A DNA stretch of 64,000 bases, from the NCBI GenBank assembly GCA_034226945.1, contig CP120460.1, positions 372,001-436,000 of the forward strand. The letters are read 5' to 3'. Every line of letters starts with the position of its first letter. Position 1 is the first letter of the stretch. Shown in pieces: positions 1 to 58,445 of the stretch. The notes under the pieces are model-generated. The model was not told where the DNA came from. It saw only the letters and a list, made by a program, of their open reading frames with translations, and searched no databases. The DNA comes from Picochlorum sp. SENEW3 (taxonomy: Eukaryota). Position numbers and translations under genes: made by a program.

Positions 1-1295
1 CTCCAGGCTGCCGTCGCTACGCCAGCGAACAAGGTCGCCAGTGCGGTATGCCTTGCTGTAAGAGTCAGACAGAGAAGCATGGACTCGCCCCTCCACAAGC
101 CCCAGGCATGGGTTGTCCACGAACGACTTGGCGGTCAGGTCGGGTCGGCCACAATATTCAAGCGCCAACCGAGGGCCGCTCAACAGCAGCTCGCCAGGGA
201 CGCCAAGGGGTAAGGGGCGGAGGGACGAGTCAACCACGTACGCATGCATGTTTGGGTCAGGGCGACCGATCACCACCATGTCAAAGCCACGGGGGAAACG
301 GTGGTGGGTCCCAGCGACCGTCGCCTCGGTGGGACCGTACGCGTTGTGCGGGCCCTTCATGTTAGGAAACACCTCTTGCATCTCCCGCACAAGATGGGCG
401 GGCACCGACTCCCCTCCCAAGCCCCAAGACTGCATGGCACCATACGGAGCAAAACCCAGCCTCTTCATGGAACTGACGTACTCGAGGGCCAAAGTGGGCA
501 CTGTGACCAAAAACGTGGTCACCTGATGCTCCACAACCGTCTTAGCAATGTAGTCAGGATCCAAGTGACCCTGGGGGCTGGCGACGATCATGCACGCCCC
601 AGCGACGAGAGGCGGAAACAACTGGTACAACGAAGCATCGAAGCAGATGGTGTTGGACAGAATGGACACGCTGGTGGTTCCCAAGGCATACTCGTCGACG
701 ATAAAATGAGTAAAGTCCCGCAGGCCCCGGTGGGGCACCGTCACGCCTTTGGGTCGACCTGTGGACCCAGAGGTGAAGATGATGTAGGCGGGGTCCTCCG
801 GACCGGCAGCAACAGGCCTGTCGACCGACAGCGTCCCCGAGCCCCCATCGTCCACACTCGACAAAACCCGGTTGACATCCAAGATGATCACAGCCCTCCC
901 ACTCGCTGCAGCCATCGCCGTGGCGCGATCCAGATGGGCCGGCTCCGTCAGCAGGAGGGACGAACCAGCATCCTCCACATACACTGACAGGCGGTCGTCA
1001 GGATACGAGGGGTCGCAGGGCAGGTAGCAGCCCCCAGCGGTCAGGACTGCCAAGATGGTGACAACAAGCTCCAAAGAACGGTCCAGCATCACGCCCACTA
1101 CCACGCCAGGGCCCACGCCGTGGACGCTCACCAGCCCCGCTGCCATGGTGCAAACCCAATGGTACACCTCCCCATACGTCAGCCGTTGATCTTGGAACAA
1201 CAGGCACTCCAGGTCGGGGTGAGACACTGCTATCGCTGCAAACGCTTCGTACACCAAACCAGCATCGGCATACTCAGCACGCTGCTCGCCCATGC
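1..1295. repeat. Direct repeat copy A (NRPS A2 domain), partner 3289-4583, period 3288 bp
   Basis: Matches 3289-4583 with about six substitutions seen by eye (e.g. 183, 630, 825, 1157, 1177, 1250). Confidence 0.95.
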
Positions 1296-4200
1296 ACTTC
1301 TCAGCCAACTGTATGGATTGGTCAAGACTCAACAGATTTGTCGATCGCACCTTGGCGTGCATATTGTCCACCATGCATGTCAGAGCGGTCTCGAAGATGC
1401 TGTAAAGACTCTGGATCGTTTGAGAGTCGTATATTTCAGCCATATACTCCATTTGAAGCACAGAACCAACAAGCACTGCTGTTACATCTGCTTTGGCTGT
1501 TGCTTTGAGCTCAACGTGCTTGTGCTTTTTTCCTGTCATCTGACCAAGGACAAGTTCTCCAATAGCACCTGGATCGCGGGTGGGGTCCAGGTACTGGAAA
1601 AGGCACTGAAACAATGGATTGGCACCAGGGACACGCGCAGCTGGGCTGGAGGCAATAATTTCCTGAAGAGGAAGTATTGAATGAGACAGAGCAGCTATAG
1701 TTGACTCACTTGTAGCTCGAATCATATCCTCAAAGGTAGATGAGTCAGAAATAGAGCATCGCACGGGCACAGTGTTGATGAAATAGCCAATTAATCCATG
1801 AGTTTCAGGCTGATCACGACCTGCCGTCGGCACACCTACCACGACCTCATCATCCCCACTTTGCAACAGCAAGGCCAACTGGAAAGCAGAAAGAAGAACA
1901 GCCTGCATATTGACACGCAGTCTGCGTGCGAGTGCCTCGACTTGCTCCAATAAGCCATCAGGAAGATGCAACACCAGTTGACGACACTCGTATGTGGGAT
2001 TGGAGGGTCGAGGCCGATATAATGGAAGCTGAATCACTGCAGGAGCTCCAGAGAGTGCTTCTTTCCACCACGCTCGAGCCTCCACTCCACGTGAACTTGC
2101 TACTTGCTCACGTTGCCATGCTGCAAAATCTCCATACTGGATAGCGAGAGGCTCGAGATCGGGTTTGGTCAAGCCCTTTTTGGCACATTCGTAGCAAACG
2201 GAAAGTTCTGCACAGAGAACACCATATGACCACGCATCGCTCACAGCATGGTGCATGGTGATAACTAAAACGGCATTACCAGAAGCCCTCTCCAATAGAA
2301 GGCCACGTAAGAGACAATCTGTCTCCAAGTTGAACTGATAGGATGCCTCCATGCAGACTGCTGCGTCAACCCAATGCTCCCCCTCTAATGCCGAACGTTT
2401 GCCCGTGATCGGCTCCTTCAGGACCTTCCAAGGAACACGGAAAGATGATGGTGGCACAGCAAGTCCGTTTGGCTCCCCATTTGAGCTCTGTTGGAATTTG
2501 GTGCGAAGCACTTCATGGCGACGCACAATCATATTCAGAGAGGATTCAAGAAGATTGGGCTCTGGGCACGAGTCAAAGTCAAACGCCAGCATAGTGTTGT
2601 AGGCAGATATGTTACCTGATTTCGCTATGCTCCACATTTGCTCCTGATTACAAGATAGCACCCTTTCATCTCCATTCCAAGGGCGAGCTTGTACCGTACT
2701 TAACATTCCTAGAGACTTGTTATCTAGCATAAGCGACGCGATACCTCTTATTGTGCGTCCTTGATGTACAACTGTGACAGGCACCATGCCCAAATCTGTA
2801 GCCTTGCCCAAATCCTTCACAACATGAAACGCCTTCAACGAAGTCCCACCAAGCGCAAAAAAGTCATCGAGAACGCTTATTGTGTCGATATTAAGACCAA
2901 GAACATTGCTAAAAGTAGAACGTAGAGCCTCCTCGACCACATTAGCAGGAATAACAAACTCCACTTGCCCATCTCCAACCCATTCAGGCTGCGGCAGTGC
3001 CCTGACGTCCACCTTGCCATTGGGCTGCAACGGAAACGCATCCAGAGCAACAATTGTGCTGGGAACCATGGCAGCCATCAACAGCGACCGGCAGTGGCTC
3101 AAGACCAATTGCACATCCAAATCTGCAGGGCACACGTACCCAACCAAGCGCTTCTCTCCAGACGGATCTGCCATCGCACACGCCACGGCTTGCGCCACGC
3201 CTGCAAAGGACTCTAAAGCGGACTCCACCTCGCCAAGCTCGATGCGCACGCCCGTGATCTTCACCTGGCGATCGATGCGCCCAAGGAACTCCAGGCTGCC
3301 GTCGCTACGCCAGCGAACAAGGTCGCCAGTGCGGTATGCCTTGCTGTAAGAGTCAGACAGAGAAGCATGGACTCGCCCCTCCACAAGCCCCAGGCATGGG
3401 TTGTCCACGAACGACTTGGCGGTCAGGTCGGGTCGGCCACAATATTCAAGCGCCAACCGAGGGCCGCTCAGCAGCAGCTCGCCAGGGACGCCAAGGGGTA
3501 AGGGGCGGAGGGACGAGTCAACCACGTACGCATGCATGTTTGGGTCAGGGCGACCGATCACCACCATGTCAAAGCCACGGGGGAAACGGTGGTGGGTCCC
3601 AGCGACCGTCGCCTCGGTGGGACCGTACGCGTTGTGCGGGCCCTTCATGTTAGGAAACACCTCTTGCATCTCCCGCACAAGATGGGCGGGCACCGACTCC
3701 CCTCCCAAGCCCCAAGACTGCATGGCACCATACGGAGCAAAACCCAGCCTCTTCATGGAACTGACGTACTCGAGGGCCAAAGTGGGCACTGTGACCAAAA
3801 ACGTGGTCACCTGATGCTCCACAACCGTCTTAGCAATGTAGTCAGGATCCAAGTGACCCTGGGGGCTGGCGACGATCATGCACGCCCCAGCGACGAGAGG
3901 CGGAAACAACTGGTACACCGAAGCATCGAAGCAGATGGTGTTGGACAGAATGGACACGCTGGTGGTTCCCAAGGCATACTCGTCGACGATAAAATGAGTA
4001 AAGTCCCGCAGGCCCCGGTGGGGCACCGTCACGCCTTTGGGTCGACCTGTGGACCCAGAGGTGAAGATGATGTAGGCGGGGTCCTCCGGACCGGCAGCAA
4101 CAGGCCTGTCGAACGACAGCGTCCCCGAGCCCCCATCGTCCACACTCGACAAAACCCGGTTGACATCCAAGATGATCACAGCCCTCCCACTCGCTGCAGC

Positions 4201-6137
4201 CATCGCCGTGGCGCGATCCAGATGGGCCGGCTCCGTCAGCAGGAGGGACGAACCAGCATCCTCCACATACACTGACAGGCGGTCGTCAGGATACGAGGGG
4301 TCGCAGGGCAGGTAGCAGCCCCCAGCGGTCAGGACTGCCAAGATGGTGACAACAAGCTCCAAAGAACGGTCCAGCATCACGCCCACTACCACGCCAGGGC
4401 CCACGCCGTGGACGCTCACCAGCCCCGCTGCCATGGTGCAAACCCGATGGTACACCTCCCCATATGTCAGCCGTTGATCTTGGAACAACAGGCACTCCAG
4501 GTCGGGGTGAGACACTGCTATCGCTGCAAACGCTTCGTGCACCAAACCAGCATCGGCATACTCAGCACGCTGCTCGCCCATGCTTCGGCCCGCAATTATG
4601 GGTTTTTGATTGGGTGTGATGATTGCCTCAATAGGAGAGTTTGGGCTCTTGAGGCCTTGGTGTAGGATGGCCATCATACTGTTAATCATCTGCTCCCCAA
4701 ACTCTGTACTAAAGATTTCTTCATTTAAAATAAGTCTCAAATGAATCTCGGTACCAAAGTCTGCAATTTGAAGGAACAAGTCCTCATTTGCTCTTCCTGT
4801 CCAAGGCTTGAGCTGACACGTTTCTGCTTGCAAGTTTGGTAAGGAAGGAGAGCATGCCCAATCTGCACACAGTTGCAACAGCAGCGTCATATCAAAAGCC
4901 ACATGCCAAGGCACATATTGGTAATTGCAAATTTTGAGACTGAGATCCATGCAAAAAAAATCGTACCTTTTTCCCAGATGGTTATAGAAGCCTTCGCAAG
5001 CAAGGCATGCGATTGGGCACCACCCAGGCAAGCCATGATATCTCCAAACGTGATGTCACCATGTGCTACTGCTTCTTTAATTTCTGCACCAATGTATTTC
5101 ACTGTATCACGGAAAGACCTCTTGTCATCCATAGTAAGACGTAATGGCAGTGCATTGACAAAATGCCCGATCATGTTTGACATGTGTGGAGGCTTGATCA
5201 TTCTGGGAAAGAGTAGGACAAGGTCTTCATCTCCACTATACATGGACAACGTGTACGAGTAAGCAGCTGTCAGTACGCGTATCAATGACTGGCGCTCTCG
5301 TGACATAAAGTTGCGGATGTCATCGAGCATGCAAACGTCATTCACTACGCACACAACAGGTTTGCCTCTGCAAGAGCTCTGGCGTGGGCGGCTTCTTTCC
5401 AAAGGCATGTTCAATGCCTGGGGAGCACCCGCTAACTTCTTTTTCCAAAATTCAGTCTGTTTTCTCACCAAGCTATCGGTCCTTCTCTCTCGTAGCCATG
5501 CAGCATATTCCCCAGGCTGGGCTTCCATTTTAGGGAGGTCATGGCTTGATGCCCCACTGTACAAGGCTGCTAGTTCACGGAGCCACACCCCTTGACTGCC
5601 TCCATCCATCACGCAGTGGTTACGGCACAGCATTACTACATGTTTCTGATCGGCAACATGGGCCACCGCCACTCGGATGAGAGGAGGAGATTCCAACTGA
5701 AATCCTCTCTGAGCAATGGTCTCCAATCTCTGCAGCACTGCTTCATGGTCGATCCCATACTCGGTCAAATCCAACACCTCCAGCGACGCTTTCACACTTC
5801 CAACCGGGTGTAGTTTTGCAGAAATGAAATCACCATCTCCATCAGGTACTTGCGATGAGCTGGAATGCTCCGAGGAAGAAACCTCCAGGTGAAACGACGT
5901 ACGCAGGGCGTCGTAGCGGTCGACCAGCAACTGGAAAGCCCGCTGCAATGCCTCATCGTCCATGCACCCTTGATACTGAATTGCTAATACTTCTGTGATG
6001 ATATTTCCCAGTTGTAATGGATCTGAATAAAAAGATTCCGCGAGAGGAATAACCAAGGAGGGCACTGGTAGGTGTCTAGTAGGAAGGCTACCATTGCACA
6101 GAACCTCTCCCTCGTTTCCATTTGCTGGCGCGTTCAT
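1..6137 (-). CDS. Multimodular non-ribosomal peptide synthetase, C1-A1-PCP1-C2-A2 (3' truncated by window edge); exons 6137-4967 and 4862-<1
   Basis: GT..AG intron 4863-4966 joins the 416-aa ORF to a long frame with no stop seen in the stretches translated. Motifs: C1 RNHCVMDG; A core LTYGEV, GGCYLPCDPSYP, AYIIFTSGSTGRPKG, FDAS, NAYGPTE, PNGKVD; PCP DDFFALGGTSL (~2836-2868); C2 MHHAVSDAWS and IGYFINTVPVR; second A domain starts ~1295. Confidence 0.95.
3289..4583. repeat. Direct repeat copy B (NRPS A1 domain), partner 1-1295
   Basis: Near-identical to 1-1295; identity stops abruptly at the C/A boundary. Confidence 0.95.
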
Positions 6138-6655
6138 ACTACTATACGGTTACGATGGGTGAGTACCAGGTATAATTTTATTTTGCAGTCTTACATGCTC
6201 GGCGGTGATGTGTAGTGAGAAATTTCACATGTAATTGGGCAATCCTCAAATTCGGATTCAGGGGGACGCGCTTTCTTGATGAATCATTTCTTTTTGAGAT
6301 ATATTACGCAGGCGAAAATCATGATTCTTGCAAGAATCAATTGATCAAGATCAAAACGATATCGTCTACTCATCGATCGCACATTTAAATGTATTTATTG
6401 ACGGAATCTTCCTTGAATAGATATATTACGTACCGTCGAAATCGACGACACGGATCGTCTACGTTCCACACATTTGCACCGTGTTGTTTTCAAATTACCA
6501 TTTTCTCTGAATTTTTCTATTACAATCCTATATATCTGTACGTCTTTGGATGCATGGATCATCGGCATCGGTCTCCTTGGCATACTGATGGCGATATCCT
6601 CTTTGTGACGTGGGTTTTTGATATCGATTGATTGATCTCTCATATGTGCAGGCGA

Positions 6656-15406: not shown

Positions 15407-18119
15407 ATGCCGCGGATTATCACTCGAATATTTGTTATTGTTCTTCTTTTAGCTTTAGCTGTTGGAAAGGGGGTTGAGGTAAGCAACTTTAATTGCTGAT
15501 CTGGACACGTGTCTTTGCGCAAAGTGCCATTTTTTTAGGTTTTGGCACAGCCAAGGCATGATTATGTTCTAGAATGGTTAATATATTGGATCTTTTGAGG
15601 CAATTGAGCGAATGTGTCCTGTGTAGACCAGGGGAACGGACAAGGTTGGGTCAGAGGCAGAGGTGAGGAGGAAGGTGGATGATGCTGCCATCGACGCCGC
15701 TATTCTTGGGGTGGAAAAGGGATTGAAAAAGCAAAGCGCACAGGAAGAAAAGCCGCAGCAGAAGGAGACGTCGGTAGGGGAGGAGGAGAAGACAGAAGAG
15801 GAGAGCACGGTAGCCGACGTTAAGAAGACTAGTAAGAAGAAGCATGTTGATGACGGTGCTATCGAGTCTGCCATATTGGATAGGAAGGATGGAAGCCAGG
15901 TTGCTGGGAAGAAAAATGATGTTGTGGGAAAAGATGGCAAAGAAGATGAGGAAGATGTTTTAGAGCAAAATGAGGTAGAACAAATTGACAACGAGGAACA
16001 AGCAGAAGAAGAAGAAGAAGAAGGAGAAGAAGAGCAAGGTGGAGTGGATGAGGATGAGGAAGAAGAAGAAGATGATGATGATGATGGCCATGTAGTATTG
16101 GAGGACGAAGACGAGGATATTGAAGATGATGAATTTCAGGGGAGCGAGGAGGATTATCAGGCGGAGAAATCTGTAGAGAAGATAGAAACGTCTGATGTGT
16201 TCTCTCAACGGATGAAGAAGAAGCTCGATGCAGTAAAGCAAAAGAATGGCAGAAAGACGTCAGAAACACGGCAACCTGTGCATATAAAGGTAGATACAAA
16301 TGCAAAATATTTGAAGCATACCAATACAGGGGCAACGCAGAAGAATCTGAGCAGCACGAGCATGGATGGTGCTGATACACAAGATGCCAAGCACCACGCT
16401 GCAAATTTACTCCAAGTAACAGTTTTAACTGTAGGGATGGCGTTGTCGGCAGGGATAGGTGCCATTCCTTTCTTTATCGTCAAGTCACTCTCACCGAGCA
16501 TGAATGGTCTTGCAACGGCAATTGCAAGTGGTGTCATGTTTGCTGCCAGTTTTGACCTTGTGCATGAAGGTCAGCCATACGGCGCCTTTATGGTTCTTGT
16601 TGGTATTCTTGCCGGTACAGTATTCATCCAAGTAGTTAAAAATGCGTTGGATGGGATGGAGGATGTTCATTTTGGGCACTTGCATGGAAAACGGGCAAAG
16701 CGTTTGATACTCATTGTTGGAATTATGGCTGCCCATGCAATCGGTGAAGGATGCGGCGTCGGCGTGAGTTTCTGTGGGGAGAAAGGATTATCACAAGGAA
16801 TTCTTACAACGTTAGCTATTGGAGTGCATAACATCCCAGAAGGTATGGCCAAAGCTGCAGTCCTTGTATCCCAAGGGGCATCTGCACCTGAGGCTCTTCT
16901 CTGGAGCATTCTGACATGCCTGCCCCAACCCCTCATGGCAGTCCCCTCATACATTTTTGTGAATATGTTTGAGTCGCTTTTGCCCATAGCGTTGGGATTC
17001 GCTGCTGGGTGCATGATTTGGATGGTCTTTGCAGAATTATTGCCTGATGCATTGAAGAATTGCAATGCATCACATGTTGCAAGCGCTGCAACATTGTCTG
17101 CGGCCGCATTGGAAGGGTTTCGAATGTTGTTTGAGTACCTCGAAAATTCCAGCAACGTTTCGGGGATAATGGATGGGTCGACAGCATCTGGATCATCATG
17201 GAAGGGTGCAATGCCGCTGAAGATTGGACAATGGCCTTCTCTATGCCTGCTCACTGCCACCCTTGTATCGAGCTGGTTGGTCAATGCTATTGCAACTCCT
17301 GTTCCTGTTGTCTTGGGATTCGTTTCGATTGCCATGGCGGCTATTGGAATTCTACCAATATCCAGTGAATTGATATTTTCAGACACCATTCCACGGCTCC
17401 ACACAATCAGTGCAGCAATTGTTGGCGCCATGTGCATTCTCATCATCAGAAATTATCTGCTGGAATCATCCTGGATACTTCCAAGAGCATCGCATGCAGG
17501 AAAACTCAAAGAAGATGATGGTTCTCTGCCAGCATACAGCAGCAGAAATGGCAGGCCGAGGCCCCTGCTCACAACAAGCAATAAGCCTCTCAAAACCTAC
17601 GCACCCCTACGAACGCTGGCCATGCTTATTCTGACGACATCATGCTGTCACGCTGTCACATCTGGGGCGCTATTGGCACGACAGGTCCAAGGGACAGAGC
17701 AGGCTCCTTCGAGCCTTTTAACAGGACTCTTTGGGTGCCTTTTTGGAGTTCTCATCGGATGCTTTTTCAGACTATGGTCAGTGCGAAGCGCGGGAGTACT
17801 TTCTCAAGCTTTTGTCGGGGTACTCATCACCGGTGCTTTCATATTCTCGGTCCACGCAGGCATGTACGACCCAACGTCAGTTCAACCATACCCAACAGGG
17901 ATACTAGACTCTCTCTCCCTTCTGACCCATGGCGCCCTTGCAATGTCGGCTTTTTTCACTCTAGCTGTCGGCATGAGTATGAATCCAAGGTACTGCAGAT
18001 TCGGGATACTGATCACCATAACATGCCTTGTTCTCGTATTCCTGACCCTGTTTGTCGGTTGCCGAGGGCTTGGCATATCTAGCATGTGTTCCATAGATGA
18101 CGTGATTCTCTTCCTATGA
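15407..18119 (+). CDS. ZIP-family metal transporter with signal peptide and long acidic N-terminus; exons 15407-15478 and 15627-18119
   Basis: Signal peptide MPRIITRIFVIVLLLALAV; in-frame GT-AG intron; AHAIGEG..VGV, IGVHNIPEG, FAAGCMIWMVFAELLPDA; second degenerate hydrophobic half. Confidence 0.88.
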
Positions 18120-45269: not shown

Positions 45270-46157
45270 TTACACAGTAAACTCTCTGAATTTTAAATAT
45301 GATCCGCACGAAGGGACTGCTGCTTCTGGGCTACTTCCACCATAAAATGTTTGTATGGACACACCTCCAATCTGGAGGTGTGGTTGGCTTCTCCATGTCA
45401 GGCCAGAGCAGGATACACTCCTGTCGTTTACTGTGAGCTGTACAGATCCATCATGTGATCCGATGTGGTTCAGAGTAAGGGATATGGATACATCGTTCCA
45501 AGCCCCTTTGGTGAATGTGAGAGGTCCTGTATGCCACAGGTGACAGCCCTTCTTTGTCATATGGCAGCAATCTCGAAATTCCACAGATTGGGCTTGCAAA
45601 GCTCCTTCTTTCGTCCCTGAAGTAGATACTTGCAATGGTATATAGACGTACAGGCAGGCAATACCTTTCCTTTGCCATACTACTCTGACAGACCCAGCAT
45701 TTGCCTCCCAGTTTCCTCCAGAAGCACCAGGCGATCCAATGAATAAACCCGGAAGTTTCCCGCCTCGAACCCAGTCAAAGTCATTGCCAATATATACTTT
45801 ATACGAAAATGTAGCAGAGATGGATGGGAATGCATGCTGAGGAGCTGCAAAGAGGCCAAATCCAGAACAACTGCCCACCTTGCCAGGAGCATAGTCTATT
45901 CGAAGGGATGGCTGGCTCGATGTTCGAGTACTATCACCTTCCGCAGAGATCCGTGCAATTACCTTCTTTCGTGACCGTATAACGTTCCATGGTGGTTGGT
46001 TCTTCTCTGGAATTGGCAGTAGAAAAGGCAGGAGTAACCTATGGTTCCCTGGTATGAATGACGATGCTACTGGCTTCTGCTCACGGCGATCATTCTTGTC
46101 TATCTCGTCAATGACATATTTTTTAATTACTTTCTTCGTGTAACTCCAAAAGCTCAT
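45270..46157 (-). CDS. Polysaccharide lyase family 14 (chlorovirus vAL-1-like)
   Basis: LRIDYAPG, FSYKVY...FDWVRGGKLPGL, SVRVVW, HDGSVQLTVN, QTFYGGS. Confidence 0.85.
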   Translation of the reverse strand: MSFWSYTKKVIKKYVIDEIDKNDRREQKPVASSFIPGNHRLLLPFLLPIPEKNQPPWNVIRSRKKVIARISAEGDSTRTSSQPSLRIDYAPGKVGSCSGFGLFAAPQHAFPSISATFSYKVYIGNDFDWVRGGKLPGLFIGSPGASGGNWEANAGSVRVVWQRKGIACLYVYIPLQVSTSGTKEGALQAQSVEFRDCCHMTKKGCHLWHTGPLTFTKGAWNDVSISLTLNHIGSHDGSVQLTVNDRSVSCSGLTWRSQPHLQIGGVSIQTFYGGSSPEAAVPSCGSYLKFREFTV

Positions 46158-46667
46158 CTCTGTCCGCAAGAAAGATTGCCTTGGAGAAGGTCCCGCAGAG
46201 AAGGACAAGACAGCTGCTCGACGACTCTTGCAAGACCAATACGCAGTTTTGATGGTTTTCAAGACAAGATTCTATCTTTCTGAGTAGCCAAGTACCAATG
46301 GAGCCCTCAATACATGAATCATCGAACCAACGACTTTGGCGCAATTGTCGGTACCGAAATGGACACGTGCCACGCGTGGCCGTACGGTGGACAGTGATGA
46401 TGAGAACCCATCTGGAAGTTGTACAAACATGAAACGTTTTCATGTTTTGGGAAACTTATTTTCAAAATATTCAGATAAATTGTGACAGATTCAATGTTGA
46501 GATTTGGAGGCCTTTTCTTTGTTGTACGAATAGCTTGCAAGACGGTGTGCCACCGACGGAAACCGTTGCACCGAAGCGGTCTTAGAACACGGGAGCCTGG
46601 CCCTCAGGCGCAGCGCCTTACTTTCATTCATTAATTTGCACTCCTCTGGGTTACATCAAGAGCCAAC

Positions 46668-49550
46668 ATGAGTATCGTCGTACTCTATTTTGCGTTCCTG
46701 GTGTCTGTTTACCTTCCTCTTGGCAGAGTAGCTGGTCAAGAAGTTACCTCCCAGACACCTTCATCGATGGGTCTTGGTTTTGGCCTGGTGCATCCTGATA
46801 ATAATATATTCACATGGCTGGACTATCTCGGCCCAAATTTTGTTCGGGCGTTCTTCCACCCGTTTGTATATTCGAGTGAGCCAGAGTACAATACACAAGA
46901 TTGGCGACAATTTGTAAGTAACAGCTGGAGGAATGGAGAGTATGGGAATCAGTTTGGGGTCTCTTTCGCTGGAGGAGATGTGATCAATCCCGATTCATTT
47001 AGAAATGCAGTCAATGACTTTCGTTTTAGGGTACAGAATGGGCCTGTGGGGATGGGGATTGCAGAGTTTTTGGAAAAGAATCACAAAGAAGTGAATTGGA
47101 ATGAATTGTTGCGCCGGATGACAGAATCTGCAGATGGTATTACGCTCATGCAACAGGGTATTCCTGAGGATTATGTGAAAAAATTACAGGATAGAGATGT
47201 AGGAATAATGGCTGTGTGGGATTGGGACTGCACTGAGTTAGAATTTCTCAGTATTGATCCAGCTGATCCAGACTACTATAGGGAGAGGTTTGAAGACTAT
47301 CGAGTCATGTATATTGGAGGTGCTTGGTTGGCAGAGCATGGTATCACAGATATTGAGTTGTACAATGAACCTGACAAAGATTCGTGCATAGATCGGACGC
47401 GCTGGAATAGCTCTTACAAGATTAAATCTCAAGCACTCCAGGATGCTTTTGCAGACTATTCCATAAAGTCTGGTGTGGGAATCAAGCCATATATAATAGC
47501 ACCAGCAACTGCAGCGTCTTTTCCTACAAACTTTGCTGGAGATATTATCAAAGATATTAATATAACATTTTTAGCAGATGAACCTGATGAGAACTGGAGA
47601 GTGCTTGATGCCTATTCATTCCATGCATATGGATCATTGCCAAGCGGATGTACAACTATTTCGCCAACCTGCTCACCGAGCAATGGGCATAAATTACGAA
47701 CAAAGTTTGATAATGCAAGAGATAACTTGGACATTAGGGGGTACCAGGATATGGATATACACATTTCAGAGTTCAATTGCTACACCTTTAGAACAGCAGA
47801 GCAACTGGCAGGTATGCATGTGATGGATGAACCGTCCACGAGTGCGTGTGTAGCTGCACAGATAGGATCTTTATATGTGAGAAGAAAGATAACTAAATCA
47901 ATAAGTTTGCATAAAATAGCTCAGAATAGGGTTACTAGTGTGCCCAGCAAAGTTGGGAAGAATGGTGTCTTGTATGGCGACACTATCAACCCGCCATTTT
48001 ATGCTTCAGGTTCTTCAAAATCCGCAGAGGTCTATCGAATGATTCTCGATAGATCTCTCACCGGATCAGGATCAAATAAGAGAGGAGAAAAAGATGTTTT
48101 CAAAGTGTATTCGAGGACGCATTCATTCACCTCTGTCAATGACATTGTCCTTGCATGGGCTTTGAAGAATGACAGATCAGTGTCAATCTTTTTAGTGAAT
48201 CAGGGCTGGTTCAATGAAGAGGTGGAAGTTGATATTTCGCAGTATGGAACAATGCCAAATTCCATGATTGTCGTATCATCCGTAGGGAATAATGAGAAGA
48301 TGACCTCAACTTTGCACGGGGAGGTGTCTGGAACCATCCCTGTGGGCACAAATGCATTGATAACATTCAATGTACCTCCAAATACAGTGCAAGAGGCTCA
48401 AATTCCAACTGTCCCCAGTGAAGTAGAGACAATTCAAGCCGAAGCAGCGGTTGTATTGAGCCCATCTTCAACAGCTACCCAAGGACAAGGGTTTCAAATT
48501 ACCTCTGACAACAGTGACGAGCCTTCAGTCCTGGTGATCAAAGTAGATGACTATCCTCAGCAGAGCGATGTTATATACACAATCTTACAGCTCCACGTGA
48601 CAAAAGAAAGTACCAATACTGAGCCAGAGATTGTCACAGTATTTGGGTACAAGAATTCTGATTGGAATGAGAATGAACTTTCCTGGTCCAACTTTGGCAT
48701 GTTGAGGACATATACCACCCCACTGAACGCTGCCAAGGACAATGTCATCAACTGGAATGATGACAAGCTGGTTATCGTGGGTCATGTGACTATACCTCCA
48801 TCTTCCTTCATCAAACAAGAAGGCATATTTGTTCGTGTGGATATAACTTCGTTTGTACAGTCTGGAATCAGAACATTTGCCATGGTCAGGATGGTTCGAT
48901 ATGATCAGACCGGTAGCGGAGACTCGACATTGCCTCAGGATAAACCTCAGGGCATCTACTACATATCATCATTGAAAGATTCGAATGAATCTTTCAGGCC
49001 ACTCGTGATGAGAAGCATAGAGGCCAAGGATGCGCCAAGTCCACCATTTGATCCAATACCACCACTGGAAAGTCCCAATCCTCCTCCTCCCCCTCCACCA
49101 CCTCCACCAGTATGTTCATATCAAGGAAAATATATGATACAAGCACTCACATGCGATAGAAGATACATTGCACACTCGCTGTCATCAAGCAATAGGAAAG
49201 TTTCGCTAAAATCCTGGAGACAAGCCAAAAATCCACGAAGAACCTGGAAGATCAAGTCTGAGACGAAGCAGGGGGATCCAACCACGCTGTTTGCAAGTGG
49301 TAGAAGAACAAAGTACTCGTACTTGGCAGGCACAAGAACACCCAGCCTACAACAGAAGGATGAACTTGTCAGGTTCTACCCAGTACTGTCAGATGACTGC
49401 TCCATTGTGCAGCTGGTGTCTCACAACAGGGCTGTCAAAGGCAGAAAGGCATTCCTGGGCACCAAATCCGATTGCTCAGGACTACGATGGTCCTACAGTA
49501 GAGTGGCAAATGGAAATAAGAGATATCAATTCCGTCTTAAACCAATATGA
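46668..49550 (+). CDS. Secreted multidomain glycoside hydrolase (clan GH-A, GH39/GH5-like) with accessory domains and polyproline linker
   Basis: Signal peptide; ELYNEPD (acid/base), YSFHAYG, IHISEFN (nucleophile); WNENELSWSN; PPPPPPPP; basic Cys-containing C-terminal domain. Confidence 0.75.
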   Translation: MSIVVLYFAFLVSVYLPLGRVAGQEVTSQTPSSMGLGFGLVHPDNNIFTWLDYLGPNFVRAFFHPFVYSSEPEYNTQDWRQFVSNSWRNGEYGNQFGVSFAGGDVINPDSFRNAVNDFRFRVQNGPVGMGIAEFLEKNHKEVNWNELLRRMTESADGITLMQQGIPEDYVKKLQDRDVGIMAVWDWDCTELEFLSIDPADPDYYRERFEDYRVMYIGGAWLAEHGITDIELYNEPDKDSCIDRTRWNSSYKIKSQALQDAFADYSIKSGVGIKPYIIAPATAASFPTNFAGDIIKDINITFLADEPDENWRVLDAYSFHAYGSLPSGCTTISPTCSPSNGHKLRTKFDNARDNLDIRGYQDMDIHISEFNCYTFRTAEQLAGMHVMDEPSTSACVAAQIGSLYVRRKITKSISLHKIAQNRVTSVPSKVGKNGVLYGDTINPPFYASGSSKSAEVYRMILDRSLTGSGSNKRGEKDVFKVYSRTHSFTSVNDIVLAWALKNDRSVSIFLVNQGWFNEEVEVDISQYGTMPNSMIVVSSVGNNEKMTSTLHGEVSGTIPVGTNALITFNVPPNTVQEAQIPTVPSEVETIQAEAAVVLSPSSTATQGQGFQITSDNSDEPSVLVIKVDDYPQQSDVIYTILQLHVTKESTNTEPEIVTVFGYKNSDWNENELSWSNFGMLRTYTTPLNAAKDNVINWNDDKLVIVGHVTIPPSSFIKQEGIFVRVDITSFVQSGIRTFAMVRMVRYDQTGSGDSTLPQDKPQGIYYISSLKDSNESFRPLVMRSIEAKDAPSPPFDPIPPLESPNPPPPPPPPPPVCSYQGKYMIQALTCDRRYIAHSLSSSNRKVSLKSWRQAKNPRRTWKIKSETKQGDPTTLFASGRRTKYSYLAGTRTPSLQQKDELVRFYPVLSDDCSIVQLVSHNRAVKGRKAFLGTKSDCSGLRWSYSRVANGNKRYQFRLKPI

Positions 49551-50848: not shown

Positions 50849-52702
50849 TCAATATGAATGGAAATCTTCAGCATGAAATGCAAAGTGTTTTCCACTAATT
50901 GCCGGGAATGTGTTGCAAGCATGGCGTAGACTTGCAACCATAGAGGTTGGTCCGCAACAAAAGACACCCACAGGACTCTCGGCAACAGATGCACCTGGAT
51001 CGTAATCTCTAAGAATCTGACCAAAATCTGGTCGTCCAAAATGTGACATAGTATTTGAGCTCTTTAGCCTGATTCCAGAGAGTATATCTAGTCCACAGAC
51101 ATCAGCATGAACAGACCCAACTCTTTTTGCAAGCTTTACAAGCTCAGGCTTTATACCAGTGAGCCATATGTTAACTCGAATGCTGCAATTCTCGGAGGAT
51201 TGTCTCAGATCTTCCATAGATTCGAAAAGGGTCTTGAACCAGGTCCTGGCTGCTTCAATGTCTCTCACCACCCAATGGAGAGTCAATGACCTACATTGAT
51301 GACTATGCTCCATCATCTCTGCAATGACCGACACAAATGGTGTCACCCCTATTCCACCAGCCACCATAAGAATATGGCTGTAGTTTTGGTATTCACATGT
51401 GCTTGTCATATACGGGCCATCCACGTAACATTTTGTCGAAACAAGATGGCCTTGGCAGGCCTGATGACGTAACTCCTTTGTCCAGTCTCCAACTGCCTTG
51501 ATATACAAGGTCAAATAATTTTTGGCAAAGGAAGTAATCGAGAAAGGATGCCATTGGAATTTTGAAATTGATGGTACTAATACATGAGCATACGTTCCTG
51601 GCTGCCAACTTCTTTTTCCAGGTGCCTGGACCGTCAGGGAAAGGGCATCATTTGGCAAAGTTTGACACAGAATGATGCTGCTAACACTTTTGCTTCTCCG
51701 ATACCATCTAATCCCAACAGATAATAGAAGTAGTAAAATTGGAATACTGATGAAAATCCAAGTTATTGAGCCAAAACCCTGAGTGGCGTCCCATGACGGC
51801 AGAGTTGGTAGAGGGTGAAAAAACAGAAGTCCAGAAAATGTCGCAGCCATGAACCAATGGCTCAACTTGAAAGCCTCAAACGACCTGAAATACTTTGCTA
51901 TCCGTGTTTCGTTTTTAATGAGTCTTTTATGCAACCCTGAAGCGATGAAGGATCCCAGCAATAGTATGCCAAGCATGGCATATCCAGTAATTGACACATA
52001 TGATGTACAAAGACCCTTCATACTTCTCGACCTTCCTCCTAGGTTACCAATGTACCTGTACTTTGAATCTCCATTTACCCATCCTTCAGAACTTGAAATA
52101 CTCCAATACAGTGGAAACCATGCTATGGAATGAACTATTGAACCTAGCAGAACAATGATCCCAAACACACGATGAAGAGTTGACATTGTTACTGGAAGGT
52201 GGACATGATGAGATAACTTCTTATAGAAGAGATATCTCAATAATCCATTTGCTGAGAGTAAACAGAACACAAGCGATGCTACAGCTAATGACGCCCCTGC
52301 AACAGCAACTGAAAGAAGGGCAAGTCGTCCCTTTTCCTTCCACACTCCTATCTGGGATCTTGGAAAACTTAAAACGAAGGCTGCAGCGACAGCAATACAG
52401 AACAAGGCGCAGAGCATGAACACAATTAAGCTATTTCTGATTATGTATAGCTTCATTCGTTTCGAAATTGATGCGCCATCAATGGATTTCTGCCTGGACT
52501 GATTTTCTATTTGCAAATCTGCCTCCATGTCAAGTGTGCTCCATATCAAGTCTGAGTCAGCGACCTGGGAAGCATTCGGCGTCTTCAAATTATCAAGATC
52601 ATAAAGAATCTTCTGTTTGATACCTTCCCTAACAACATTATTGAACACGCAGCATGCATCTAGCACTTCCTCAATGGATTTTTCAAGGTAATCGTCTTCC
52701 AT
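50849..52702 (-). CDS. Ferric reductase / NADPH oxidase superfamily flavocytochrome without EF-hands
   Basis: Four haem His (HRVFG...IVH, SHWF...FFH), QWHPFSITS, YVDGPY, VAGGIGVTPF, HFGRPDF, VFCCGP, HAEDF. Confidence 0.92.
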   Translation of the reverse strand: MEDDYLEKSIEEVLDACCVFNNVVREGIKQKILYDLDNLKTPNASQVADSDLIWSTLDMEADLQIENQSRQKSIDGASISKRMKLYIIRNSLIVFMLCALFCIAVAAAFVLSFPRSQIGVWKEKGRLALLSVAVAGASLAVASLVFCLLSANGLLRYLFYKKLSHHVHLPVTMSTLHRVFGIIVLLGSIVHSIAWFPLYWSISSSEGWVNGDSKYRYIGNLGGRSRSMKGLCTSYVSITGYAMLGILLLGSFIASGLHKRLIKNETRIAKYFRSFEAFKLSHWFMAATFSGLLFFHPLPTLPSWDATQGFGSITWIFISIPILLLLLSVGIRWYRRSKSVSSIILCQTLPNDALSLTVQAPGKRSWQPGTYAHVLVPSISKFQWHPFSITSFAKNYLTLYIKAVGDWTKELRHQACQGHLVSTKCYVDGPYMTSTCEYQNYSHILMVAGGIGVTPFVSVIAEMMEHSHQCRSLTLHWVVRDIEAARTWFKTLFESMEDLRQSSENCSIRVNIWLTGIKPELVKLAKRVGSVHADVCGLDILSGIRLKSSNTMSHFGRPDFGQILRDYDPGASVAESPVGVFCCGPTSMVASLRHACNTFPAISGKHFAFHAEDFHSY

Positions 52703-53090
52703 GAGTAATCGGGAATGGTACTTTCTACGCCGTCCAACTTGACAATTAAATAATGGTTAGAATTTTATTGAGCTGTTCAATGGATCATTTGAAAATTTGA
52801 TAATTTGATAATAATATCGTATCTGTTTTGCTTGCAAATACTTAATACGTGGATCGCCTCGACGCCATCCCCATGAGGCGCACGCCGAGCGTGTGTCGCA
52901 AGTCTTTTTTGAGGACGTCGCTCTCGTTACCAGAGGCTAAAAAGATGGAACAAATAATTTTGATTAAAAATGGTACTGTCAAGGGACGTACCAGGATCGT
53001 GTTTTTGAACTAGTTACATTGAAAATATAGATTGGCAAATGCATGTTGCTGCATGAAGACCCCATACGATTCATATCTACTTGTTGCCAT

Positions 53091-55213
53091 CTAAATAAAG
53101 ACAGCTCCCACTACCGTGGCTAAAATAGTAAGCGAAAGATTCACCAAAAAGCCTCTGGAGGAGGAGGTTTCATCCTCTTGATAAATTCCTCCTGCTTCAC
53201 CAGCCTCACCGGCTTCTCCTGCTTCTGACTCTCCTTCATATTTACTCAGATCAAGCTTGGTAGTCCTCTCTGGATAATTGATGAACTTGAGTTCATAAAA
53301 GTCAGAGCAATCGTCAAACACATTGAGAGCATTCCCCATAGACACTACAGCATCTCTGACTGCATACCCTTTGTCAATGATACATTTCCTTGTGTCCATG
53401 GTGGCATTTGCATAGGATTTGTAGTCAGCGTTCAATAAGTTTGAAATACTTTCTTCGGTGACATTTGCAGCAGAGACTGCCGTAATATCATCATTGGTAT
53501 TAATACCAAGGCAGTCTCTAGCATCCTGTATTGCCTGTGCAACCTCCTCACATTCTTTTGGTGCATCGTCGCAAAATGGATAAATTTGGCTCCATATTCC
53601 TTTCCAATTATTATAAAAGATCAAAAGGGACAAGTCGGAGAATGTCTCCTCCTCACTTGAAATCTTCTTCGATGGCACCTCAGATGCAAGACCTGCTATT
53701 CCGTCCCATGCATTGGCAGAATTAAAATCTTCGGAGGGGTTCTCTAGGCGACCCTGGAGGTCCTTCAAGTTATCAATAATATCCTCGGCAAGAGATATAG
53801 TGTCATTCGAAATCATATTCTCTCCGAAAAGCAGCCTCTCTACCCTATGGAAACCCCTAAAGGAATCATCCAATTCTCCTCTGAAGTATATATACTCGCG
53901 GGCGTCCAAAGCCTCATCAATATCGATGAAGCTCGGAGCTAGCACTTCAACCTGTTCATAAATTGGTCTGGTGGACAAATAGGCAGATTTCGCCGCATCA
54001 ACGTCTCCACTCTTGAGAACCTCCACAAAGTTTTCTGACTCCTGAACAGCGTATGGCATCAAGGCACTGAAGTATGCAAGGCCATTTTGAATCTGAGGAC
54101 TCTCGTTTGAGAATGAAGCCGTTTCTACGTATGGAGTGCATTCGTCGGAGCTCTCTGCCTCGCCTTCCCCAGCCTCTCCAGCCTCTGAAGGATCTACCAA
54201 TTCAATACCCAAAGAATCTGCAGCATCCTCAACAGCAAGGCCCACATCATAGAATGACTTTTGAATATTTCTTCTTGTTGTGACATTGACCGCAGAATAT
54301 GGCTCATATCCAACCACATTTCCGTCGCCATCCCTTAGGACATATGGTGCAAGGGTCGCATTGGCTGCGTCAATGGATGTGATCAAGCCCTGAGCACTAT
54401 CAGGATTTGATTCCTGGAGAGCCTCAATCCATGGCTCCATGATGTTCTTTATACCTGCCAAATTGTGGTAAAAGATGAGAATCGATAAATCTGAATACGT
54501 CTCCTCTTCACTGGAGAGTTTCTTCTTGGAGACCTCGTAGGCAAGCTCTGCCACACCATGCATAATGGCCTCTGGAGTATAGTCGGATGGATCATCCAAT
54601 TTTTCAATCAGTATCTCATAGTCTTTGATCAATTGTTCAGTCCATGAAACAGCTCCCGGTAAATCGTCCTCTCTGAACAACATAAGCTCGATCTTGTGAG
54701 AGCCTTTGAAGACGGCTCCTGGGATCTCAGTAAGCTGGGCACTAAAAGCTTCTCCATACGGGTAGGCATATGGTCGGGCGTCGATATCAGAATCGGTATC
54801 GCCAAAAACCTCATATAAATGTTCAATCTCTTCATAGTTGGGACGAAGTGCGGTATATGCCGCGATAGAAGCATTCTTGTCTCCAGATTCAAGGGCTTTG
54901 ACGAGATCCTGAGCAAGAGATATCGACTCCACGGCATTGCTCCTAGCGAAGGACACCACCGACATGACCTCAGGAGAGGCAGCTACATTAAAACGATAAT
55001 GATATTAGTGCATGATTGACTTGATTGGAGCATCTTGGTCTCGGTAAGGAAATGTGGGCAGAAATGTGATCAAGCACATTTCCAAAACTGGATGTTCCGG
55101 CAGTTGGTTAAGAAACCCATCCAGATGGATGAGGCCATCACATACAAGAACCTACCGATACTGCTTTGAATTACACATGCTAAAGCGAAGAAAACTACCG
55201 CAGAGCGCATCAT
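53091..55213 (-). CDS. Secreted, probably GPI-anchored protein with two EfeO/imelysin (M75) domains; exons 55213-55156 and 54982-53091
   Basis: Signal peptide MMRSAVVFFALACVIQSSIA; each domain has RPxYExxE, D..IDAR/LDAR, GxHxxE (HKIE, HRVE), KKxSSEEETxSDLS; hydrophobic C-terminus after SSS. Confidence 0.88.
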
Positions 55214-56988: not shown

Positions 56989-57275
56989 TGACTGCTGTTG
57001 CATTGTGGCATATTCTCATCACTCAAACGCATGCATGCCATGCGTCGAACGCGCGTTCGACCGACGTGATCGTGATCAGGTTTGATATCGTGACTCGAAG
57101 GACACTCGAAGAACACTCGTCTCACTATAATGAAATGTTATATTCACTTTAGACTCTCGTATATGTAAATATATGTGAGTCTGCTGTTCTTTCGACATCA
57201 ACTATACGAGATTGCAAAAGATTCGCCCCTATTCTTGGTCATCCACTGGGATAATTGGCTCAACCCTTGAACGCA

Positions 57276-58445
57276 ATGCGGATGCCCTTGTGTTGCACCA
57301 GAGCAACACATGTCACCTGTACTGGTACAAACATGCTGCCTATCAGTCGTAGTAGTATTCAGTCTGTTGTATTCAGAAGGGCATTCGCTGGTTCTCGAGG
57401 GATCAGCAGCACGTGCCGTGCTGCTTCAGGACTGAATCAGGATGAAATTTTCGTATTAGAAAATGGTGTTGTTGATTATTACGCTGTACTAGGAGTGGAT
57501 GATGATGCTACAGAAGTAGAGATCAAGTCTGCGTATAGGACAATTGCAAAAGTCTGTCATCCTGATATTAGTGGGGATGAAGAGGGCCATAATATGTGTA
57601 TCTTGTTGAATGAGGCCTATACAGTGCTTTCGGACCCAGAACAGCGAAGTGAATACAACAGAGTGTTGGATGAGGCTCTGGGAGATGAAACTGATGGGTA
57701 CACAGGGCAGACACTGTCTAAATGGATGGCGAATACTCGGATGGGGAAGAATGAAGATCCAAATGAGAGTCGAGGTGTGTTTGTGGATGAGTGTACATGT
57801 ATTGGGTGCAAACAGTGCGTGTGGTGTGCCCCAGCTACATTTCGGATGGAGGATGACTATGGACGGTCACGGGTGTTTGGGCAATGGTTGGATACGGAGG
57901 ATGATATCCAAGCTGCTATGGATGCGTGCCCAGTGAGCTGTATTCATTGGGTGGAAAAGGAAGACTTGCCTGCGTTGGAGTATGTCACTCAGAATGTTGT
58001 GGAACGGGTTGATGTTGGTGTGATGATGGCCGGACAGGGTGGGGGCGCGAAGGATGTTTGGGCGGCCACGGCAAAATTTTTAAAGGATAGAGAGGAGAAG
58101 CGTAAAGCCAAGGAGCGTGCTGCTCGGTACAGTAGAGCACAGGCTGCTGCCAGAGCTGCTGCTGCTGAAGCATTGGCACAAAAGCAGTATGGATGGTTCG
58201 ATGACTTGGCAAAGAAATTTGGCATTGAGGATGCGGCAACTCGCCTCAAGCAATCGATGGAGTCGAGTGTGATGGGATCGATGAGTGATGAGGAGTATGA
58301 CAGCTACAGAAGGGTGGGGAAGAGGAAAAGGACTAGGAGACGTGATGGTGACATGTATGGATCTCGAGGCGACAATGGAGGTCGTGTTCCGTCAGATAGG
58401 GCCATTGTTCCAGCTGCCGTTGGAAAGAGAGTGTGGGAAAGATGA
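57276..58445 (+). CDS. Chloroplast DnaJ protein with ferredoxin Fe-S domain (CDJ3-5 / DJC76-like)
   Basis: DYYAVLGV...HPD J domain; VFVDECTCIGCKQC...CPVSCIHWV. Confidence 0.92.
   Translation: MRMPLCCTRATHVTCTGTNMLPISRSSIQSVVFRRAFAGSRGISSTCRAASGLNQDEIFVLENGVVDYYAVLGVDDDATEVEIKSAYRTIAKVCHPDISGDEEGHNMCILLNEAYTVLSDPEQRSEYNRVLDEALGDETDGYTGQTLSKWMANTRMGKNEDPNESRGVFVDECTCIGCKQCVWCAPATFRMEDDYGRSRVFGQWLDTEDDIQAAMDACPVSCIHWVEKEDLPALEYVTQNVVERVDVGVMMAGQGGGAKDVWAATAKFLKDREEKRKAKERAARYSRAQAAARAAAAEALAQKQYGWFDDLAKKFGIEDAATRLKQSMESSVMGSMSDEEYDSYRRVGKRKRTRRRDGDMYGSRGDNGGRVPSDRAIVPAAVGKRVWER

Follow-up and report, generated by a model that had tools for sequence, protein, structure and literature searches.

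A question raised by one locus of the Picochlorum sp. SENEW3 genome is why a protein domain of an overwhelmingly bacterial type should occur, twice in tandem, within what looks like a secreted protein of a green alga. The gene in question lies on the minus strand at positions 53091..55213 of a 64,000-nucleotide stretch of contig CP120460.1 (GenBank assembly GCA_034226945.1, positions 372,001 to 436,000 of the forward strand), which is termed here the window and to which all coordinates below refer. It encodes two copies of the Peptidase_M75 (imelysin) domain that characterizes the bacterial iron-uptake proteins EfeO and EfeM. Here gene structure, structural models, residue conservation, phylogeny and genomic context are used to argue that the product is, with a reasonable degree of probability, a secreted and probably lipid-anchored surface protein with two iron-binding clefts that functions in iron acquisition, possibly fed by an adjacent reductase.

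The gene is real, spliced, expressed, eukaryotic and well conserved. As read from the sequence, it starts with the ATG at 55213-55211 and stops with the TAG at 53093-53091. Exon 1 (58 nucleotides; 55156..55213) contributes the start codon, the signal peptide MMRSAVVFFALACVIQSSI and the first base of a split alanine codon; next comes a phase-1 GT..AG intron of 173 nucleotides (54983..55155, with GT at 55155-55154 and AG at 54984-54983); and exon 2 (53091..54982) provides the open frame of the 630-residue mature protein (P0002), the last codon of which, at 53094, is followed by TAG. The first alanine codon of the mature protein reads identically across the splice site, and the precursor comprises 649 residues. 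By inspection, the signal peptide has MMR as its n-region, then a hydrophobic core, and S-I-A as a cleavage motif of small residues, and hydrophobic signal-like segments also open those homologues that have full N-termini. The splice joint (54982->55156) occurs, at a depth of 107, within a 267-nucleotide contig of a public sequencing run (X3) that skips exactly these 173 nucleotides, whose ends read CT..AC on the plus strand; the source strain of this run is about 97% identical, and its being an RNA run is only a guess. An oligo-dT RNA-seq run (X7) contains three fragments of the gene, of which two match at 99% identity or better, and parts of the gene are uncovered in this run and in a third one (X1).

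The mature protein matches the Pfam family PF09375 (Peptidase_M75) in two stretches (E 4.5e-34; 118.8 bits against a cut-off of 23.5), and its two lobes align with each other at 33% identity over 269 columns (E 1e-37). When scored with a hidden Markov model (HMM) built from nine single-lobe bacterial proteins, the N-lobe (mature residues 1-262; 54198..54982) obtains 196 bits, spanning profile positions 47-287 of 288, and the C-lobe (residues 282-570; 53274..54140) obtains 214 bits. Both contain a GxHxxE motif--G94-S-H96-K-I-E99 in the N-lobe and G377-F-H379-R-V-E382 in the C-lobe--of which the glycine, histidine and glutamate are invariant in each of 34 two-lobed homologues. The available text of Xu et al. 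(2011; PMC3143127) gives GxHxxE as a motif of the imelysin superfamily.

As modelled, both lobes are complete imelysin folds. An AlphaFold2 model of the whole protein, computed from the 34-sequence alignment, has a mean predicted local distance difference test score (pLDDT) of 87.9 and a predicted template modelling score (pTM) of 0.86, with pLDDT falling below 50 only at linker residues 274-279 and within the last 49 residues; the C-lobe modelled by itself reaches a pLDDT of 90.1 and a pTM of 0.89. Each lobe model displays the all-helical imelysin arrangement of two four-helix bundles. The best structural match of the N-lobe (residues 1-260) is the Sphingomonas protein Algp7 (5y4c; Z 30.9, root-mean-square deviation 1.7 A over 245 residues), and the N-lobe (residues 1-261) also matches Escherichia coli EfeO (7wgu; Z 30.0) and EfeM (7q1g; Z 28.3); the C-lobe yields the same order (5y4c, Z 28.9, deviation 2.5 A over 244 residues; 7wgu, Z 28.4; 7q1g, Z 27.4). 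A sequence search of the PDB likewise returned EfeO, EfeM and Algp7, and the ESM Atlas returned a single weak match, to a bacterial EfeM/EfeO cluster (0.76).

If these folds bind metal, then the residues responsible should be recognizable by comparison with EfeM, for which the available portion of PMC9174327 describes a site III (Y82, H126, E129, E189 and D190) and an acidic site IV (E90, E93, E97, D103 and D107, together with E179), and reports about 1.5 iron or copper ions retained per protein. Equivalent positions were mapped by eye, from motifs within a gapless stretch of the 7q1g alignment and from the lobe-to-lobe alignment rather than from a metal-bound structure. On this mapping, the predicted site III comprises Y43, H96, E99, E160 and E161 in lobe 1 and Y335, H379, E382, E445 and E446 in lobe 2, that is, five of five equivalents in each. 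The predicted site IV comprises E51, E54, E58, D64 and D68 in lobe 1 (five of five) and E343, E346, P350, D356 and D360 in lobe 2 (four of five, with P350 replacing the E97 equivalent), and the E179 equivalent is kept in both lobes, as E150 and E435, respectively. Across the 34 two-lobed homologues, site III of lobe 2 is invariant; in lobe 1 its histidine and three acidic positions (all glutamate) are present in 34 of 34 and its tyrosine in 31, the other three being gapped at that position. In each lobe, 30-34 of the 34 sequences retain the E179 equivalent and four of the site IV residues, the fifth (the E97 equivalent) being variable. Because the site residues are conserved in both lobes, both lobes appear to be functional.

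Each lobe is followed by an acidic segment encoded by 9-nucleotide tandem repeats specifying (GEA)n. The inter-lobe linker PSEAGEAGEGEAESSDE (residues 263-281; 54141..54197, repeat at 54169-54186) includes the low-confidence residues 274-279, and the (GEA)n stalk (residues 571-606; 53166..53273, repeat at 53189-53226) is disordered in the model; the stalk repeat varies in length between strains, contigs of the related strains sampled by runs X1 and X3 having 15-nucleotide insertions at 53229 and 53224. Six cysteines (mature residues 282, 471, 478, 491, 534 and 559) all lie in the C-lobe. Within the 34-protein alignment, which divides into a green-algal type (group A) and a second type (group B), Cys 282, 491, 534 and 559 are present in 15 of 15 group A sequences and in none of 19 group B sequences, and C471 and C478 occur only in three Chlorellales-type sequences; the added cysteines likely form disulfides. 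A preliminary description of this DNA, made from the letters alone, had pointed out a separate signal-peptide exon ending at a phase-1 intron, two homologous domains of a bacterial M75/EfeO type each followed by a GEAGE-type linker, several cysteines in the second half, and three serines ahead of a hydrophobic C-terminus; all of these features stand.

The last of them bears on how the protein is held at the surface. A canonical glycosylphosphatidylinositol (GPI) attachment signal consists of small residues, a short spacer and a terminal hydrophobic stretch lacking a charged stop-transfer sequence. The Picochlorum protein ends in ...ETSSSRGFLVN-LSLTILATVVGAVFI (53094..53165), that is, in S607-S-S as candidate attachment site, the spacer RGFLVN and a run of 15 hydrophobic residues (mean Kyte-Doolittle hydropathy 2.45 over the last 15) after which nothing follows; this C-terminus appears to have the layout of such a signal. 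Tails of this kind are shared by P0003 and its cluster, from a congener, by P0004 of Chlorella vulgaris and by two other relatives (P0007 and P0031); other family members end without one, for example in ...YRHxx. Thus the GPI tail proposed in the preliminary description holds as a layout for this protein and these few relatives and not for the family at large: as far as the sequences go, it is confined to a Chlorellales-type subset. A Pseudococcomyxa homologue is labelled 'putative extracellular protein' CSOL_045 in its source. On one metagenome contig of 71% G+C (L089:1067-3796, plus strand), a group B two-lobed M75 protein has a C-terminal Hint module (PF01079, E 2e-19), a Hedgehog/intein-type module that could provide an alternative, autoprocessing tether for the same ectodomain.

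An alternative that leaves the function unchanged is that the tail is retained as a single transmembrane helix (type I, with no cytosolic tail) or that the protein is released to the cell wall. In keeping with this, the tail of the congener cluster contains a lysine and is less hydrophobic (mean 1.45-1.47), many family members lack any tail, and the Hint-bearing relative has that module in place of one. Nevertheless, the Picochlorum tail terminates the protein without charged stop-transfer residues and is preceded by three small residues and a six-residue spacer, so that a different anchor, while it deserves to be kept in mind, seems rather doubtful compared with lipid attachment.

How the two-lobed form is distributed bears on where it came from. 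A word-indexed search returned 27 relatives of similar length, the named ones being from Chlorella vulgaris (48% identity), Bryopsis, two species of Coccomyxa, Pseudococcomyxa and, among red algae, Rhodosorus; a second red alga, Bangiopsis, came from a cluster look-up, in which other entries bore generic 'EfeO' labels. Automatic database labels on some members read 'Imelysin-like domain-containing protein' or 'probable iron uptake system component EfeO'. Among 1.84 billion representatives searched exhaustively, 621 proteins matched at E <=0.001, 188 at 1e-10 and 30 at 1e-30. Scored with the bacterial single-lobe profile, 34 of the 40 proteins of at least 440 residues in the assembled set have two strong lobes (>100 bits each), and this two-lobed set spans Chlorella, Coccomyxa, Bryopsis, Rhodosorus and Bangiopsis, the named two-lobed matches being algae only. 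Two-lobed genes of both types, A and B, also lie on eukaryote-like metagenome contigs of high G+C content (65-74%), five of them (L081-L085) resembling P0020 and three (L089, L095 and L096) resembling P0050 and P0053; on two trebouxiophyte-like contigs, one Chlorella-like (L156) and one Coccomyxa-like (L158), the gene is found in several separate pieces, as though introns interrupted it. The 80 bacterial loci, by contrast, have one domain apiece (with a frame break through it in two of them), so that the tandem form is, as far as sampled, eukaryotic. A screen for horizontal gene transfer in Picochlorum lists 26 candidates, none of which, in the available part of that report (PMC6141220), is an M75/EfeO protein, which fits a gene that is shared with other algae. 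Judged by these sequences, the two-lobed form is an old algal family, whose duplication long predates Picochlorum and which is no recent bacterial import. The local horizontal acquisition followed by duplication that the preliminary description envisaged is therefore not what this spread across green and red algae indicates; and the broad vertical distribution across eukaryotes that it had set against that idea was found in part, being broad among algae.

The closest bacterial relatives are single-lobe proteins. A search with the C-lobe alone retrieved proteins of about 290 residues having 36-38% identity over 86-94% of the lobe, one of which, from a Gloeomargaritaceae cyanobacterium (P0042; locus L001), is annotated as an EfeM/EfeO family lipoprotein. 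Prokaryotes scanned at one genome per species yielded 94 relatives, the best 80 of which comprise 41 Cyanobacteriota, 28 Planctomycetota, 5 Pseudomonadota, 2 Actinomycetota, one each of Verrucomicrobiota, Thermomicrobiota and Chloroflexota, and one unplaced. The first of the query sequences came from a cyanobacterium, which tilts this ranking towards that phylum.

Per-lobe trees were computed from 86 rows chosen from 224 (IQ-TREE quick search, LG+G4, with support from the Shimodaira-Hasegawa-like approximate likelihood-ratio test, SH-aLRT) and rooted on ten classical EfeO domains; a FastTree analysis of all 224 rows agrees in outline. The algal lobes and the single-lobe bacterial relatives form one clade apart from classical EfeO (SH-aLRT 100), within which the bacterial proteins are one clade (95), the group A C-lobes are another (95), the group A N-lobes branch at the base without clear order, and both group B lobes together form a clade (99) that is sister to the bacteria (95). 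Alternative topologies were compared by the approximately unbiased (AU) test. Joining all eukaryotic lobes gives a tree 5.2 log-likelihood units better than the free one (p-AU 0.58); joining eukaryotes with cyanobacteria gives one 0.97 units worse (p-AU 0.50); and joining all A and B C-lobes, as would follow from a single shared duplication, gives one 37 units worse that is nonetheless not rejected (p-AU 0.12). The per-lobe phylogeny that the preliminary description had called for thus defines one subfamily and points to no donor, the bacterial relatives forming a clade of their own and the algal lobes being nested within none of the sampled bacterial phyla; these trees decide neither the donor and the direction of transfer, nor whether there was one duplication or two. 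A cyanobacterial, plastid-derived origin, prompted by the Gloeomargaritaceae match, is not rejected by the AU test and is favoured by nothing. A transfer from eukaryotes to bacteria, hinted at by the sister position of bacteria to group B in the free tree, was dropped because the constrained all-eukaryote tree is better.

The gene neighbourhoods of the single-lobe relatives indicate what such domains may do. In 4 of 14 bacterial loci, from Phycisphaerae and Rubrobacter (L028, L035, L036 and L045), the single-lobe gene lies directly upstream of genes for an SBP_bac_6 binding protein, a fused permease and an ABC/TOBE_2 ATPase, which begin just downstream of the match at about 5001-5900 and which we read as a putative FutABC/Fbp-like importer. 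In one other locus, a Gloeomargaritaceae metagenome-assembled genome (L001:2852-4939), it follows TonB, ExbB and ExbD; an OprB porin gene adjoins it in two of the 14, and an SBP_bac_6 gene lies nearby in L020. These contexts suggest that the subfamily's association is with iron rather than with EfeU, and suggest for the single-lobe bacterial proteins a hitherto undescribed accessory role in ferric-iron import.

Within the window, eukaryotic DNA of a trebouxiophyte (46.8% G+C, with long open frames and genes for MCM6, a cyclin, a Nup84/107-family nucleoporin, UPF1 and glucan-water dikinase), the next gene downstream of the M75 gene, 389 bp away and on the same minus strand, encodes a flavocytochrome of the NADPH oxidase (NOX)/ferric reductase (FRE) family (50849..52702; 617 residues from the first methionine; PF08022, 1.4e-17; PF08030, 1.5e-23). 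Public sequences include a 362-residue record, 'Respiratory burst oxidase-like protein B [Picochlorum sp. SENEW3]', that covers 35% of this query at 100% identity; given so small a share of the 617-residue frame, the public respiratory burst oxidase homologue (RBOH)-like gene model may be truncated. Among other named relatives the best are plant RBOH proteins (24-27% identity, best E 8e-33), with FRO8 at E 2e-18; neither EF-hands nor a Pfam match to the PF01794 transmembrane domain was found on the neighbour. Its product could act by direct reduction of ferric chelates or by superoxide production. Extracellular superoxide can reduce Fe(III) in phytoplankton. Two further observations concern this pair of genes: a reductase (P0214) and an M75 protein (P0187), each from a congener, both list a contig of 16,170 nucleotides, which is a hint only; and, equally a hint only, a 4,308-nucleotide contig of run X3 contains the 3' two-thirds of the M75 gene (window 52900-54803) and continues for 2.4 kb more towards the reductase gene, which may reflect a conserved adjacency or DNA present in that run.

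Taken together, these results suggest the following mechanism. The protein would display two tandem, complete EfeM-like domains at the surface of this Picochlorum-type green alga, probably by way of a lipid anchor. Each lobe would bind iron within its conserved cleft, at the Tyr/His/Glu site III and at the adjacent Glu/Asp site IV, and the bound iron would be kept at the membrane for a transporter. The adjacent NOX/FRE homologue may supply Fe(II), either directly or via superoxide, and an FTR1-type permease, reported elsewhere in the SENEW3 genome in the available text of PMC11092101, could receive the iron. The metal specificity, the GPI attachment and the partnership with reductase and permease are what we infer; the gene structure and splicing, the signal peptide and tail layout, the two intact modelled folds and the conservation of the site residues are what the analysis shows.

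Several observations weigh against this iron-receptor role. The protein scores 212.8 bits against the NCBIfam EfeO equivalog NF041757, below its cut-off of 270, and no cupredoxin family is among its Pfam matches, for which reasons it is filed as EfeM-like (M75-only) rather than as an EfeO orthologue. The layout of the tail was judged by eye only. The neighbouring flavocytochrome is closer to superoxide-forming NOX/RBOH enzymes (26% identity, E 8e-33) than to plant FRO reductases (E 2e-18), and none of the 36 open reading frames (ORFs) on eight related eukaryote-like contigs has an FRE/NOX domain; the pairing with the reductase, observed in the window alone, therefore counts as a hint from one locus and not as a general pattern. 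As to the permease, the FTR1 motif RE[GAT][LIVM]E has 0 matches in the six frames of the window, and the 31 window ORFs scanned have no Pfam match to FTR1 or to DyP peroxidase; likewise FTR1 has no Pfam match among 65 ORFs neighbouring the relatives in the 14 bacterial loci, so that an EfeU-type partner is not implied by ancestry. The literature yielded no experiments on any eukaryotic member. Finally, the metal is not settled, inasmuch as M75 domains bind copper and zinc in vitro, as EfeM does in the available text of PMC9174327.

This last point is the basis of an alternative in which the protein buffers or stores divalent metals such as copper and zinc in a general way outside the cell, or binds cations in the wall, and has no part in iron uptake. 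In vitro, EfeM kept Cu2+ and Zn2+ in addition to iron, and Algp7 was solved with a metal ion (5y4c) that is called Cu2+ there (PMC9174327, in the part available); the protein's long acidic (GEA)n linkers would suit such a role; and a ZIP-family gene occurs elsewhere in the window. The informative bacterial contexts, however, point to ferric-iron import, and the adjacent gene belongs to a ferric-reductase/NOX family, and we regard a non-iron buffer as unlikely. The ZIP-family gene itself (15627-18116, plus strand) encodes a long transporter that matches at 36.4 bits, just above the cut-off.

Another alternative takes its cue from the neighbour: the protein might partner a superoxide-producing NADPH oxidase without being a receptor, by binding or oxidizing Fe(II) at the surface and thereby limiting Fenton chemistry or coupling superoxide to the redox cycling of iron. 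The neighbour's best named relatives are indeed RBOH/NOX proteins, the Picochlorum record is named RBOH-like, and site III of EfeM has been proposed by its authors, in the available part of PMC9174327, to couple Fe(II) capture with oxidation. Yet this adjacency is confined to the window, and the literature looked at contains no ferroxidase activity of M75-only proteins; such an oxidase partner is accordingly quite improbable. Least probable is a binder of acidic, alginate- or uronate-type wall polysaccharides like Algp7, tied to the polysaccharide lyase family 14 (PL14) gene at 45273-46271 (minus strand; PF21294, E 3e-36), a link that the preliminary description had drawn and for which no support was found: Algp7 is among the best structural matches of both lobes, but the PL14 gene lies at a distance of 6.8 kb, beyond two unrelated genes, no PL14 Pfam match occurs among the 36 ORFs on the eight related contigs, the residues conserved in both lobes are those of the metal sites, and the later Algp7 entry, 5y4c, is titled as an EfeO-like protein with bound metal ion.

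Other genes of the window are noted for completeness. Between the PL14 and reductase genes, a 971-residue frame (46635-49547, plus strand) with a signal-peptide-like start, a ten-proline run and no Pfam match may encode a cell-wall glycoprotein. A large non-ribosomal peptide synthetase (1-6149, minus strand) with two AMP-binding stretches, a PP-binding domain and two condensation domains runs off the window start; such an enzyme is not usual among green algae, and this one may be the phosphopantetheine-binding candidate in the available part of the transfer screen (PMC6141220) and could make a siderophore-like product, its gene lying about 47 kb from the M75 gene. At 57255-58442 (plus strand) is a gene for a DnaJ protein with a 4Fe-4S ferredoxin domain.

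Returning to the iron-receptor reading, its several strands can be combined into a broader and more speculative scheme, which as a whole we consider improbable and put forward tentatively. In this scheme the family would comprise unrecognized, widespread algal iron receptors, its members occurring in green and red algae and on abundant marine picoeukaryote-like contigs; these may serve a copper-independent, high-affinity pathway in which no multicopper ferroxidase takes part and the iron passes to an FTR1-type permease or some other transporter; lineages A and B may have arisen from two separate duplications; and their tethers may vary between a GPI-like tail, a Hint module and none. Iron limits algal growth in much of the sea, and to our knowledge surface iron-capture proteins are known for only a few algal lineages: phytotransferrin in diatoms and FEA proteins in Chlamydomonas. 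The present family is conserved, expressed and extracellular, with two intact predicted metal clefts per molecule, and its members come from Chlorellales, Coccomyxa, Bryopsis, red algae and many marine contigs; if it does bind iron at the surface, it would be a new candidate receptor, testable in tractable algae, and a marker for metatranscriptomes. It also illustrates how a bacterial-type periplasmic domain can be rebuilt for a eukaryotic surface, through the addition of a signal-peptide exon, introns, a duplication, cysteines and a lipid-anchor signal.

The imelysin superfamily is called bacterial in its founding description, in the available text of which the string 'eukaryot' occurs 0 times (PMC3143127). 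No publications on eukaryotic M75/EfeO members were found, subscription journals being outside the coverage; a paper on algal gene neighbourhoods (PMC7826186) has nothing on iron uptake or M75, and the text matches to 'EfeO' in PMC10225680 are to an author's name, Efeoglu.

Transferrin, the diatom phytotransferrin ISIP2a and Chlamydomonas FEA1 are extracellular, membrane-proximal iron binders, some of them internally duplicated. With these the Picochlorum protein has a functional and architectural analogy only, the fold appearing unrelated: no transferrin-type structure is among the seven Foldseek matches at E <=0.001 or among the VIA-align matches shown at Z >=8, all of which are of the imelysin family. 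Given that the metal-site residues are retained in both lobes, the preliminary description's image of a bilobed surface metal receptor is reasonable as an analogy of function, and its comparison to transferrin applies to architecture alone.

Among known systems, the closest in sequence are the single-lobe EfeM/EfeO lipoproteins of cyanobacteria and planctomycetes, which share with the algal protein the motifs RPxYExIE and KK[IV]SSEEE and which, unlike it, have (in about 290 residues) one lobe, without the cysteine set and without acidic linkers, in the context of ABC importers (read as FutABC-like) or of TonB. Pseudomonas syringae EfeM (M75-only; 7Q1G) has the same fold, the HxxE motif and sites III and IV except for the E97 equivalent, but differs in being a single-domain, periplasmic protein of an EfeUOB/M system with an FTR1-type permease and a DyP peroxidase, neither of which is in the window. 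E. coli EfeO (cupredoxin plus M75; 7WGU) has a homologous M75 domain (E 4.1e-29), whereas the Picochlorum protein lacks a cupredoxin match and falls below the NCBIfam EfeO cut-off. Algp7 of Sphingomonas sp. A1 (3AT7, 5Y4C), the best structural match of both lobes, is a single-domain protein. Viewed against these systems, the Picochlorum protein is a member of the EfeO/EfeM M75 family and is best described as a form of EfeM that is eukaryotic, duplicated in tandem, equipped with cysteines and tethered in various ways, belonging to an algal family that is apparently undescribed.

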